A DNA stretch of 64,000 nt from an uncultured Alphaproteobacteria bacterium (lineage in GTDB: Bacteria; Pseudomonadota; Alphaproteobacteria; RF32; CAG-239). The stretch covers positions 134,564-198,563 of the forward strand of contig CALXPT010000002.1 in the NCBI GenBank assembly GCA_944390355.1. The letters are read 5' to 3'. Of this stretch, positions 23,969 to 32,596 are shown piece after piece (the first letter of the stretch is position 1; each line of letters opens with the position of its first letter). The position numbers and the translations under genes are program-made. The notes beneath the pieces are model-generated. The model did not search any database, was not told the origin of the DNA, and was given only the letters and a program-made list of their open reading frames with translations.

Positions 23969-23997
23969 AAAGGGCACCGTTAAAACGATGCCCTTTT
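23969..23997. terminator. Bidirectional terminator containing the helicase stop codon
   Basis: AAAGGGCACCG/CGATGCCCTTT hairpin. Confidence 0.7.
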
Positions 23998-26454
23998 AAG
24001 ATTAGAGAAAGAAATTTTCTCAGCCGAAACACCCTCAACCGAAACAGTTGAATCAAAATTATCATTTTGAGAGGAAATATGAATTTCTTTGAGTTTGGAA
24101 TTAAAGCTAATCCCGTTGGACTTATCCCCGACAATATGAGCCTTGACGACCAAATCAGGATTTTGAATATCAATGTAGGAAGCCACAACCGGATTAATGG
24201 TTAAATTAACTTCGTTTCCGTTGATAAGGCCGAGATTCTTGAGCTTATCTTCACTAATGTTAACCGTTCCGTAAAAATTAGGCCGTTCCCGCCCAAGGAT
24301 ATCGAACAAATCAAAATCTTTTTTAGGGTTGGGAATAGACAAGACATTAGAAATGAGGTCGCGTTCTTGCTCTTTTTTAAGCGTATCGCTCCAAAAAGCA
24401 TCCGGAATATTGTTTTTTTCGATAAAGGCTTTAAATTCCGCAATGCCTTTTTCTTTAAGAATGTTCAATGCGTTGGCGACACGGGCATTAAACCCATCGG
24501 CAACAAAATCTTTCAATTCGTAATTGCTTATATAAGAAGAATCTAATATATGAAAATCTTTGTCGCTGTCAACACTTGAAATAATCTCAGGATTTTTAAG
24601 AATAAATTTTTTAATATCGTCCGTTGATAAAGAAGTAACATTTTCATAAATCGTAAAGGAGCGTCCGCCGTTTTTGGGCGTAATCACCCGCGGCTCGGCC
24701 AAGAAATTGTTGGAGCCGGAAACTGCGGAAGAATTAGAAATCTCATAAGAGTCTCGGTTAAAAATGTTTTGTCTGTCGATATTAAGTTTTTCAATATGAC
24801 CGGCGATGAGGCATTGACGCAATTTGTCATAATCAAACTCAAGCATATCGGTAGAAAAACGTACGCCGAGCCTGTGTCTCAAATCACGAATAAGCTCTTT
24901 AGTTTCAAAAAAGCGTTTTTTGTTAACGTTGTATTTATAAAAGATTTTATTCGTTTCATCTTCAAGCTTTTTCCTTTGCACACCGTCGCGTTTGAGTTTT
25001 TTCAAAGCTTTGTCTGCAGCAAGAAAAGCTTTGAGTCCGTCAAACAGGTCGGAAGAATCATCCAGCCCATGCCCCTGACGGAAGTTTTGTCGCAAATTTC
25101 CCTGTTCGGCGATTGCAACCATAACAAGAGCTTGAGGCAGACAATATTCTCTGCTTTGGGCGTATTTGAGAGTAACGGCATTTTCCACGGTAACCGGCAA
25201 GTCGTTGGCAAACTTTCCGAGCTTGGTGAGGTGACCGTCTTCATCAATGAGTTTAAGCCTTTTAAGTTTTGCTTTGGCGGCCAATAATTGTCCATGGTCG
25301 ATATATGCATCAAAATTCAAGTCCTCGGCTTTCAAATCAAAGCTAGCACAGTCCATAATCAAAGAAGAAAGCGGCAAACGAGAAATTTCCGGTGTGGTTT
25401 CTTTCGCGCGGTTTTTCCATCTAGTGTAAGACGCTAAAACAAAGATACCGTCAGTAAAGCGGCAGACACGTCCTTTTTGCTGTTGCAAACGCCATTGCGG
25501 TAGGTCTTGCTCTTTAAGAGCGATAGCCCCGCTTGAGGTAACAAAAAGGTCTTTTCCTTTTCCGGAAGTAATACCTGCATCCAACCAAGGAATATTCATA
25601 CCGCTTTCAATAACATTTGTACCGATAATAATTTTTCTAAAACCGTTCTTGGGTGATTTAAGAGCTTTGTCGCGTTCTTTTTTATCCATTTCACCATAGA
25701 TGGAAGCCACCTCAACGTCTTTAATGTCTTTTTCTAACAAGAGTGTTTCAATTTTATCTTTGGTTTCTTCAATGTTTGCGACACCGGATTCAAAAATGGC
25801 AATACCTTTGCGCTTTTTGTTCATGAGCAAATCGATAGAGTGTTCGGCAGCATCTTTGCTGTTGTCTTCAATGATTTCACAGTCATAAGTTCTGCCTTGT
25901 GCTTCAAAGGTATTGGGATTAAAGTCTCGCCAATATTCTTTTTGCTTTTCAAGGTTGATAGTAGCACTCATTTCAATAAGACGCAAAGCATCACCTTGCT
26001 TTTTACGATAGTGGAGCAGGGCTTTGGCAATGGACATATCCATAGAAGCCTCATGAACTTCATCGAGCACAATATTTTTTTCATAAAAAATCATACCGGA
26101 GCTGATGGCATAACCATAAGTGGCAAAAATAATTTTAGAATTTTTGCTAAACAGAGGCTCATCGCCGCCTTGAGTACCCACTGCATAACCCACCTCTTCG
26201 CCAAGGGTTCCGCCGGAGAGTTCGGAAACGGTTTCTGCGGCGTTAATCGCTAAAAATTTTCTTGGAACGAGCACAACAACACGCTCGTTGTCAGGAATTT
26301 TATCAGCAAGTTTGGCAGGGATTGTTAAAGTCTTACCGCTACCGGTAGGAGAAGAAATGATGGTAACATTATTATCAACCGAATCCATCACCGCATCGGA
26401 AATCTCATTAACCGGCAAATCCTTAAGTTTATCATTATATAGCGCTTCAAACAT
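23980..26454 (-). CDS. Divergent DEAH/RHA-family (HrpA/HrpB-like) SF2 helicase
   Basis: SPTGSGKT, VPRKFLA, GEEVGY, LDEVHE, MSAT, GTNVIESGMNI, QQQKGRVCR, PEISRLPL, LTKLGK; GGGAG RBS before ATG 26454. Confidence 0.88.
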   Translation of the reverse strand: MFEALYNDKLKDLPVNEISDAVMDSVDNNVTIISSPTGSGKTLTIPAKLADKIPDNERVVVLVPRKFLAINAAETVSELSGGTLGEEVGYAVGTQGGDEPLFSKNSKIIFATYGYAISSGMIFYEKNIVLDEVHEASMDMSIAKALLHYRKKQGDALRLIEMSATINLEKQKEYWRDFNPNTFEAQGRTYDCEIIEDNSKDAAEHSIDLLMNKKRKGIAIFESGVANIEETKDKIETLLLEKDIKDVEVASIYGEMDKKERDKALKSPKNGFRKIIIGTNVIESGMNIPWLDAGITSGKGKDLFVTSSGAIALKEQDLPQWRLQQQKGRVCRFTDGIFVLASYTRWKNRAKETTPEISRLPLSSLIMDCASFDLKAEDLNFDAYIDHGQLLAAKAKLKRLKLIDEDGHLTKLGKFANDLPVTVENAVTLKYAQSREYCLPQALVMVAIAEQGNLRQNFRQGHGLDDSSDLFDGLKAFLAADKALKKLKRDGVQRKKLEDETNKIFYKYNVNKKRFFETKELIRDLRHRLGVRFSTDMLEFDYDKLRQCLIAGHIEKLNIDRQNIFNRDSYEISNSSAVSGSNNFLAEPRVITPKNGGRSFTIYENVTSLSTDDIKKFILKNPEIISSVDSDKDFHILDSSYISNYELKDFVADGFNARVANALNILKEKGIAEFKAFIEKNNIPDAFWSDTLKKEQERDLISNVLSIPNPKKDFDLFDILGRERPNFYGTVNISEDKLKNLGLINGNEVNLTINPVVASYIDIQNPDLVVKAHIVGDKSNGISFNSKLKEIHISSQNDNFDSTVSVEGVSAEKISFSNLKRASF

Positions 26455-26514
26455 GTAACAATCTCCCAAAACAACATAGCTATAAATATATCACAAAAGA
26501 GGTCTTAAATAAAC

Positions 26515-26539
26515 AAAAAAACCACCCTAAAAAGGTGGT
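26515..26539 (-). terminator. Intrinsic terminator or attenuator at the 3' end of the candidate RNA
   Basis: ACCACC-tttttag-GGTGGT followed by a T-run on the minus strand. Confidence 0.75.
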
Positions 26540-26808
26540 CGGGAAGTTCGTAAATCATATTGAGTCAGATGATTCCGCAAATTTTTAAAACAAATGTCCC
26601 CAATTGCCAGACATTGTCTCTGTACATATATCTGCAGCTCCCCGACCATGGACATGTCACACGATCAAGGGGAATATAATACCGCCGAAAGGAATTTCAT
26701 CCCCAAAGCGATTTTATCGGTGTTATATTCCATCCACCGGACTCAATATGAAGGACTTACGACAGTCCCATACCTTTTCAGGTATGACCACGAAAAACCG
26801 TGATACAA
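26515..26808 (-). ncRNA. Candidate ~290-nt structured non-coding or leader RNA of unrecognised family
   Basis: At least seven stems whose G-U pairs and GAAA tetraloop favour the minus strand; bounded by a sigma70-like promoter and an intrinsic terminator; no ORF with a convincing RBS. Confidence 0.7.
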
Positions 26809-26813
26809 GGATA

Positions 26814-26842
26814 ATAATAGCATAGGATTAAAATAAAGTAAA
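26814..26842 (-). promoter_or_regulatory. Sigma70-type promoter of the candidate RNA
   Basis: TTTACT, 17-bp spacer, TATTAT, with an extended -10 TG. Confidence 0.65.
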
Positions 26843-26882
26843 GATGTTTTTATACAAAAAAATATAAAAATAGCCACAAAAA

Positions 26883-26913
26883 AATCCGTTTTCGAAAAAG
26901 AGAAAACGGATTT
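26883..26913 (-). terminator. Terminator of the ppiD-like gene
   Basis: AAATCCGTTTTC/GAAAACGGATTT hairpin with a T-run on the minus strand. Confidence 0.75.
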
Positions 26914-31993: not shown

Positions 31994-32596
31994 ATGAAAA
32001 AACTTTGCACAATATTGGCGATTATAATTATGGGAACAACCACTAAGGTTCAAGCCGCCGAAAATAATGAGCAAATCCCGACCAAAAGTTGGAATATATT
32101 TAGTGAAGAAGGGAGAAATTATATTTTATCCCGTGCAAAGTATAACTTTTCAGAGACATGGAAATCAGATAGCTATGACGCATATATACCGCTGTACGCA
32201 TGGCATAACCGCTTAACCTACGACCAAGAACATATAGATAAATACAACGAAAATCCATGGGGCTTTGGTATTGGCAAATATCGCTATGATGAAGACGGCG
32301 ATTGGCATGGGCTTTATGCCATGGCTTTTAAGGATTCAAATGACTATCTTGAAACAATGTTTGGCTATGCTTATCAAAAGAACTGGTTTGTGAATTGCAA
32401 TCGCGATTTGAGAGTAGGCTTGGGTTTTACGGTTGGTTTAACCCAACGGCATGAATATAAATACATTCCGGTACCATTGCCACTGCCTTTGGCCGGACTT
32501 GAATACGGACGCTTTGCATTGCAGGCTGCTTATGTCCCTGGGCTAAAAAATGATGGCAATGTCTTGTTTACATGGATGAGATTTCGAATAAATTAG
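31994..32596 (+). CDS. pagP: Lipid A palmitoyltransferase PagP
   Basis: Signal peptide; WHNR, YNENPWGFG, GLYAMAFKDS, PLPLP, YVPG...GNVLFTW. Confidence 0.88.
   Translation: MKKLCTILAIIIMGTTTKVQAAENNEQIPTKSWNIFSEEGRNYILSRAKYNFSETWKSDSYDAYIPLYAWHNRLTYDQEHIDKYNENPWGFGIGKYRYDEDGDWHGLYAMAFKDSNDYLETMFGYAYQKNWFVNCNRDLRVGLGFTVGLTQRHEYKYIPVPLPLPLAGLEYGRFALQAAYVPGLKNDGNVLFTWMRFRIN

Follow-up and report, generated by a model that had tools for sequence, protein, structure and literature searches.

At this locus, an RNA able to adopt two mutually exclusive folds, one of them containing an intrinsic terminator, lies on the same strand as a DEAH-box helicase gene, and the question is whether it controls that gene. 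The window, by which we mean the whole 64,000-nt stretch of DNA that was analysed, had been the subject of an original prediction that placed a riboswitch-like attenuator at 26521..26670 and allowed that the helicase itself might remodel it or that the pairing might be a pseudoknot in a stand-alone RNA. The elements it described, namely an 11-bp pairing with one G-U, a rival strand, an overlap with the terminator, the helicase ATG and a TTTATT motif, were all located where it had put them. On the minus strand, UGGUCGGGGAG (26648-26638) pairs with CUUCCCGACCA (26546-26536) in the 11-bp helix with one G-U, here called P1, while the terminator stem (26540-26520) has 9 bp followed by a U-run, and its 5' arm shares 5 nt (26540-26536) with the 3' strand of P1. 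In the minimum-energy fold, the G-rich strand of P1 is held by its rival partner CCUUGAUCGUG (26670-26660, minus strand), and over 26675-26512 the terminator plus rival helix was computed at -47.8 kcal/mol versus -41.5 kcal/mol with P1 forced. None of 1000 dinucleotide shuffles of 26521-26670 contained a comparable long-range helix (at least 11 bp, at most one G-U and at least 7 G-C pairs), and the RNA at 26800-26510 had a folding z of -5.9, with equally stable structures in 0 of 200 shuffles. The helicase ATG at 26454 lies 60 nt beyond the terminator U-run, and TTTATT (26513-26508) and TGATATATT (26493-26485) are both present in between.

Architecture of the RNA

The interval originally marked proved to be only the 3' half of an RNA of ~290 nt. 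Outside it lie a promoter (26842-26814) and loop-pairing sites (26769-26740), the latter comprising two leader sites, b1 and a1, that are complementary to the RNA's own loops and were absent from the original prediction. The features are, in order along the minus strand:

26882..26913, minus strand: terminator of the upstream SurA/PpiD-like gene, which cuts the RNA off from upstream transcription
26814..26842, minus strand: RNA promoter (-35 TTTACT, 17 nt, extended -10 TGnTATTAT), with equal spacing in sister copies
26769..26786, minus strand: 5' hairpin CAUACC/GGUAUG, conserved in the family as GUACC/GGUAC
26752..26769, minus strand: b1 hairpin, with loop UGUCGUAA complementary to b'
26740..26750, minus strand: a1 site CAUAUUGAGUC, able to form 11 Watson-Crick pairs with the a' loop
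26660..26672, minus strand: rival strand CCCCUUGAUCGUG, which sequesters the P1 5' strand in the terminating fold
26534..26648, minus strand: three-way junction resembling C4, sRNA-Xcc1 and Brt (P1, P2, P3 and an ACC tail), scoring 130.7 bits with the covariance model R1
26647-26638 with 26546-26537, plus a U-A pair 26648/26536, minus strand: P1, the closing helix of the junction
within 26534..26648, minus strand: P2, with internal loop AUGUNCA/AAA
26553..26574, minus strand: P3 hairpin, whose a' loop CUGACUCAAU (26568-26559) is a copy-specific code
26547..26552, minus strand: b' junction strand UACGAA, the second part of the code
26514..26540, minus strand: intrinsic terminator, its 5' arm overlapping the P1 3' strand
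26485..26493, minus strand: extended -10 TGATATATT, apparently left over from a promoter that the helicase had of its own, judged by likeness to an ortholog in genome G003
23980..26454, minus strand: DEAH-box (HrpB-like) helicase of 824 aa, with Pfam DEAD and Helicase_C domains

Transcription of the RNA would start at about 26807. The elements of the 3' half follow one another as P1, P2, P3 with the a' loop, the b' strand and then ACC, and in the window copy every part is intact and the a/b code matches. P1 is pseudoknotted against the long-range helix made by a1:a' and b1:b', so the two are alternatives and not one fold; in this respect the original suggestion of a pseudoknot in a stand-alone RNA is half right.

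Conservation of the two folds

Both exclusive folds, including the one with the terminator, were conserved with compensatory changes among 82 distinct homologous sequences. In an alignment that had been fitted to the junction structure, 97% of junction cells were paired and covariation was 0.487 versus 0.208 in shuffled alignments (0 of 500 as high). P1, whose conservation the original prediction had named as a check, was 98.6% paired with two-sided change at 5 of its 10 pairs, and the terminator helix was 94.7% paired with two-sided change at 5 of 7. The overlap of terminator and anti-terminator that is the hallmark of an attenuator is therefore present with both helices conserved. Across a larger set of 224 copies, a U-run stood behind the terminator in 201, b1 was mostly unpaired within its local hairpin in 176, and a1 was placed 4-8 nt behind the b1 hairpin. 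The duplex with the cognate rival strand averaged -13.0 versus -7.5 kcal/mol for shuffled strands and was better by at least 3 kcal in 181 of the 224. The P2 internal loop AUGUYCA/AAA was nearly invariant; junctions began with GG in 145 of 224 copies and ended in an RCY tail in 192, the window copy having a GGU start and an ACC tail. RNase P RNA is encoded in the window's genome.

Distribution of the family and the genes behind it

The switch in the window belongs to an extensive family of leader RNAs, most of them unannotated, that resemble phage C4. BLASTN found relatives in 26 of 36 genomes of the window's bacterial family and in 0 of 24 others. R1, the covariance model of the 3' half (built from 28 sequences), matched 73 of 80 genomes of the bacterial family, 21 of 150 across the class (one of them from the CAG-239 family and one, G130, unpublished) and 5 of 150 across the phylum, all five within the same class. 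The window's genome holds seven copies, five of them full, one a 3' half and one degenerate, and relatives hold up to 77 (G076 77, G112 69, G024 30, G101 24). A pattern scan of named genomes gave at least 120 stretches, of which 80 were listed, nearly all from gut Alphaproteobacteria; titles among the matches listed include CAG:495, Ca. Scatocola and Ca. Enterousia, and two rows there with Bacteroidaceae titles, possibly mis-binned, also score with R1. Five of six pattern matches on viral contigs were true copies, and a distant homolog matched 236 plasmid records, mostly rhizobial, of which 184 are called conjugative; two plasmid loci scored 58.9 and 46.7 bits with R1. BLASTN of the window RNA against named phages returned only two trivial matches, a search of the L086 copy against plasmids returned zero, and Rfam at gathering score found nothing in the whole window but two tRNAs, with no riboswitch match.

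Gene position could be assessed for 145 of 150 distinct copies, the flank of the other 5 being too short. A same-strand ORF with a ribosome site followed within 260 nt in 127 of the 145 and within 60 nt in 113, the family median distance to the start codon being 27 nt. An attenuator is a reasonable description of the family, whereas the helicase-specific part of the original prediction is refuted. Among 95 of the 127 downstream proteins (near-duplicates and the helicase being left out), 13 were BspA-type LRR proteins, all from G076, 7 outer-membrane beta-barrels, 6 HTH proteins, 5 glycosyl or polysaccharide enzymes, 2 PMP-repeat proteins and 1 a pilin; 49 matched no family at 1e-5, and several more had, by eye, a pilin-like N-terminus. 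These genes do not belong to a single pathway. In the window's genome, XRE genes lie behind three other copies and a truncated XRE gene behind one more. The cassette's cargo is normally an accessory or surface-protein gene.

Several sister copies had individual peculiarities. The 3'-half copy L044 (G000:C1:72097-72212) precedes a truncated XRE gene, has no cognate a1 upstream and is separated by 600 nt from a full copy whose XRE gene is intact, and the degenerate copy L045 (G000:C38:2451-2712) has kept the window's a1 and lost the matching a'/b', with an orphan ORF behind it. At L002, L005, L006 and L007, combinations of leader and gene appear shuffled, with like proteins behind differing codes at different loci, and L007 is broken inside P2 and fused to other sequence. 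A recurring insert of ~100 nt, which opens with a short inverted repeat and may be a small mobile repeat, separates the terminator from the LRR gene at L119, L120, L122 and L132 in G076. A reverse transcriptase of 438 aa (RVT_1; L003:1898-3214, G010) is encoded immediately upstream of one sister copy on the same strand; a link between it and the RNA was rejected, as L004 has the same downstream gene without RVT_1.

The helicase as a neighbour

The helicase scored 165 bits with the NCBIfam HrpB model, under the cut-off of 546, and so is not assigned to HrpA/HrpB. The original prediction had raised remodelling of the leader by the helicase itself, or a joint RNA-plus-helicase module, and had proposed examining the co-occurrence of RNA and helicase across genomes. 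DEAH helicases can remodel RNA, and the two genes are adjacent and in the same orientation, which is all that speaks for such a module. When co-occurrence was examined, RNA homologs stood before many unrelated genes, with helicases making up 0 of the 95 scanned downstream proteins, and the RNA occurred in 73 of 80 genomes of the bacterial family versus 2 of 150 relatives for the helicase (3 of 151 with the window's genome included). The two other orthologs, 79% and 69% identical (G003 and G285), both lack the RNA upstream. We consider the module very improbable, and the helicase looks like an incidental neighbour and not a fixed partner.

In G003, ppiD is followed directly by the helicase, in the gene order of the window, with a plain promoter (TAGACA-17-TATATA) and no RNA; the same TGATATAT and TTTTGGGAGA stand ahead of the start, and its -10 and ribosome site resemble the window stretch behind the terminator. 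The apparent ancestral extended -10 of the helicase survives behind the terminator, and control of the helicase by this copy is uncertain. A chance somewhat short of even attaches to the explanation that the RNA is an orphan at this locus, a terminated small RNA whose original downstream gene was lost while the helicase is expressed from the surviving extended -10, which is compatible with any mechanism of the RNA. It fits the RNA-free arrangement in both G003 and G285, and it fits the spacing, since sister copies have their ribosome site close behind the terminator whereas the window has extra sequence resembling the G003 promoter and UTR. Against it, the -35 of the G003 type (TAGACA at 17 nt) is not retained in the window, and the window copy has all its parts intact and a matching code. 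On the mechanism proposed below, the window copy would have come to stand before a helicase that had, and perhaps still uses, its own promoter; the helicase then adds little beyond a case of a cassette landing before such a gene.

The G003 ortholog (L107:187-3969) has 1261 aa with a weak pentapeptide-repeat match past residue 829, G285 has a separate ORF after the helicase, and the window's helicase ends at 824 aa. A likeness to a type II CRISPR repeat at 26427-26488, over the helicase 5' UTR (E 0.19), was attributed to chance, because the genome contains a single copy of the 17-mer even when up to 2 mismatches are allowed, and G003 has not retained it.

RNA contigs in metatranscriptomes

In all four metatranscriptome runs inspected (two studies), contigs consisting of the RNA only were found, all within 26792-26540 (26792-26564, 26782-26545, 26784-26540 and 26765-26597; depth 8-39), and they run through leader and junction as a single piece. 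No contig in the four runs bridged the terminator, the contigs ending at 26540, 26545, 26564 and 26597, and helicase pieces of depth about 3 appeared in two of the four, unjoined to the RNA contigs. Because the runs were selected for containing this stretch and the contigs give no ends, strand or level, we regard them as weakly suggestive of a separate RNA that is terminated. The separation of RNA and helicase contigs would suit an orphan RNA; as evidence of termination it is weak, and such a gap proves nothing.

Relation to known RNAs

Among described RNAs, sRNA-Xcc1 (RF02221), reported as an integron-cassette small RNA (PMC12189769), has the same order of elements (P1, P2, P3, a U-rich junction, P1 and ACC) and a P2 internal loop of AUACAA/AA type. 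Its model aligns end to end (1-87), at the R1 positions, on the window copy and nine distant copies; however, the window copy scored 22.7 bits (E 0.17) and the nine distant copies 26.9-33.3, all below the gathering score of 53, and the Rfam model has neither leader nor terminator. The C4 RNA of phages P1/P7 (RF01695) shares three stems, single-stranded a'/b', a GGW start, specificity residing in a' and upstream targets in which b1, in a hairpin loop, is followed by a1 (PMC5320573 and PMC2864571), and the P4 CI RNA with seqA/seqC is the counterpart of C4 and its a1/b1 targets. Rfam scans of the window RNA and its homologs gave no match to RF01695. The gut family differs from C4 in lacking the second, downstream target set (a2/b2 or seqC), in having an intrinsic terminator that overlaps P1, in standing before host surface or regulator genes (LRR, beta-barrel, XRE, pilin-like, orphan) and not icd/ant, and in its copy number, which reaches 77 in one genome. 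Although it fell short of formal membership of both C4 and sRNA-Xcc1, the element operates in the manner of a self-antisense leader of the C4 type that has been remodelled around an intrinsic terminator.

The BrtR primer from PMC5387305 located Brt loci in 34 of 61 genomes of one genus, taken from the primer to be Bartonella, and found no match in the viral contigs, nor in 401 genomes from the class and 401 from the order. The loci scored 20-36 bits with R1, with 29 matches of E below 0.001 in 20 loci, which marks a distant homology. They share the b1 hairpin, the a1/a' and b1/b' pairing, copy-specific codes, the rival strand and P1, and they are followed by an XRE gene; they differ in having no U-run past the hairpin, Brt copies ending in a G-rich ribosome site, and in that the window copy precedes a helicase and not an XRE gene. 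In the accessible part of PMC5387305, the Brt1-9 RNAs are described as abundant and their Trp (XRE) genes as silent, Brt is called genus-specific and a ligand riboswitch is proposed, with no mention there of self-pairing codes; a review (PMC8070961) relates that removal of the Brt1 3' stem-loop raised trp1 transcription and that heme is proposed as the signal.

In IsrK of Gifsy-1 (RF01394), a short leader-derived RNA targets, in trans, the read-through transcript of its own locus and turns the downstream gene on (PMC4825925). It differs in that it is an upstream, seqA-like part and acts on translation, and RF01394 had no match here or in the distant copies. Acinetobacter baumannii Group 1 sRNAs comprise 21 chromosomal C4-like copies with variable a', apparent GGW processing and more reads from the GGW start; unlike the gut family, they match the C4 model and are read as acting in trans on other mRNAs, and an overlapping terminator is not described in the accessible text (PMC5320573). 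No published account of the gut family, or of a bistable switch of this kind, came up in a literature search that did not extend to subscription papers, bioRxiv supplements or the supplementary alignments of large RNA-motif surveys.

Copy-specific codes

For the analysis of the a/b codes, 259 elements yielded 254 that could be parsed and 224 past a filter on a1/b1, named records being excluded as duplicates. The mean complementary run of a' was 8.5 against its own upstream region versus 5.8 against the upstream regions of other copies, and a run of at least 7 was present in the own upstream region of 72 of 82 copies versus 20% of the others; for b' the means were 6.4 and 5.2. Within 400 nt downstream, where a2/b2 sites were sought, there was no excess of a' complementarity (6.0 versus 6.0). 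In the window's genome, each code pattern was found at its own locus, one AT-rich pattern having three further matches, and a genome-wide search for targets in trans found the window's b1..a1 pattern at its own locus only.

Copies were then compared in pairs by background identity, computed with the four code segments removed. Identical a' and b' at 75% background identity or more were found in 0 of 577 same-genome pairs versus 38 of 497 cross-genome pairs, counts that are not independent, as 444 of the 577 came from G076 and the cross-genome matches fall by eye into about seven groups, with one ortholog group supplying many. At 85% or more, the figures were 0 of 87 versus 28 of 69. In same-genome pairs 90-95% alike, identity was 0.66 for a' and 0.67 for b', far below the 0.93 and 0.91 of the P2 strands, whereas cross-genome pairs of the same likeness kept 0.83 and 0.95. 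All 71 copies examined in G076 had distinct codes, and in another family seven near-identical copies ahead of XRE genes had seven differing codes. Among 6032 ordered pairs from the same genome, 8 cross-matched in code; L004/L028 of G006 and two tandem pairs of G024 are among them. Tandem copies ~300 nt apart occur in G024 (L143:1249-1904 and L145:451-859) and G076 (L135 and L136), and the G024 tandem pairs have a common a/b code, unlike dispersed copies. That none of the 577 similar same-genome pairs has a common code suggests copy-specific action in trans: judged from these comparisons, the codes look selected to differ within one cell, which a helix acting only in cis would not need. Gene conversion that spares the long-range helix could mimic this divergence.

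Folding computations and the proposed mechanism

Folding was computed for 84 of 149 distinct copies (parsed, a1 at least 7 and b1 at least 5), with transcripts cut just past P1. In unblocked nascent folds, a1:a' was closed in 84 of 84, the rival helix formed in 82 and the probability of P1 exceeded 0.5 in none. With a1/b1 blocked in silico, P1 rose by more than 0.2 in 26 of 84 copies and above 0.5 in 19, and fell in none; it stayed below 0.5 in the other 65, and a control block left it unmoved in all. In the window copy, P1 was 0.00 with and without the a1/b1 block, and in four full-length transcripts the terminator persisted. Since the cis folds are closed and P1 shifts upward only, termination appears to be the default, with occupancy of a1/b1 pushing the RNA partly toward the anti-terminator.

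The closure of a1:a' in every computed fold would also be expected of a purely cis two-state attenuator, governed by folding kinetics, a ligand or a protein, in which a1:a' and b1:b' merely form a long helix and the codes differ through drift plus gene conversion elsewhere. This alternative draws further on the reported responsiveness of Brt1 to heme level (PMC8070961) and on the near-invariant internal loop AUGUYCA/AAA, for which we have no other explanation. It gives no reason, however, for identical codes being confined to the cross-genome pairs at 85% or more, nor for code segments diverging within a genome far beyond other paired segments while being kept across genomes, and we regard it as unlikely.

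The reading that we put first, at slightly under an even chance, is an attenuator that is off by default and is opened by the RNA processed from its own transcript, in which the trans action, processing and read-through are inferred steps. The cassette would be a self-contained promoter-leader-terminator unit of a C4/sRNA-Xcc1/Brt superfamily. By default, the nascent RNA would pair a1:a' and b1:b' in cis, the rival upstream strand would hold the G-rich strand, the terminator would form and an RNA of ~290 nt would be released. Alternatively, the 3' half may form P1 and adopt a tRNA-like junction with ACC at its end, which would take 4-5 nt from the terminator and expose a' and b'. RNase P might excise this junction by a cut at its initial GGU, in the manner of C4, and the freed RNA could bind a1/b1 on new transcripts of the same locus, thereby freeing their 3' half to close P1 and allowing read-through or further processing. 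Every copy would then be self-regulating through a private a/b code. Precedents include the trans activity of IsrK on its own transcript, the greater number of reads from the GGW start of the Acinetobacter RNAs and the rise in trp1 transcription when Brt1 loses its 3' stem-loop.

The same cassette could operate with the opposite sign, the processed RNA on a1/b1 enforcing termination in an immunity-like manner, so that genes would be on only briefly after entering a cell without the cognate RNA. The known relatives are repressors, the processed RNA of P1 c4 and P4 CI repressing and not activating (PMC4825925, PMC3632133 and PMC8198154); copies on five viral contigs and the largely conjugative plasmid homologs would suit such a role, which accounts for private codes equally well. 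Yet blocking a1/b1 moved the folds toward P1 only, the cis fold terminates unaided, and downstream a2/b2 sites are absent. We judge repression doubtful, slightly more so than the cis-only attenuator.

An extension of the activating, default-off reading, which we hold to be improbable, is a heritable on/off memory made of RNA only: the processed RNA would keep its own locus on by positive feedback, and dozens of mutually orthogonal codes would allow a single cell to turn paralogous genes for pilin-like, LRR and beta-barrel surface proteins on or off one by one. If true, this would be phase variation without DNA change or protein regulator, achieved with an immunity RNA of phages put to a new use, and it would also account for the trigger that is missing for Bartonella Brt. 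More generally, the comparison brings three RNAs that had been described separately (phage C4, sRNA-Xcc1 and Bartonella Brt) under one design and offers, for leaders whose signal has not been identified, a testable trigger, namely the RNA processed from each leader, recognised through a short code. In a gut bacterium with 77 leaders (71 examined, all with different codes) before paralogous surface genes, this would amount to a novel means of varying the cell surface, and such leaders would form a natural set of orthogonal RNA switches.

Elsewhere in the window, at 31994-32596, a gene for a PagP lipid A acyltransferase lies between pyrG and kdsA and is followed by a 333-aa orphan.
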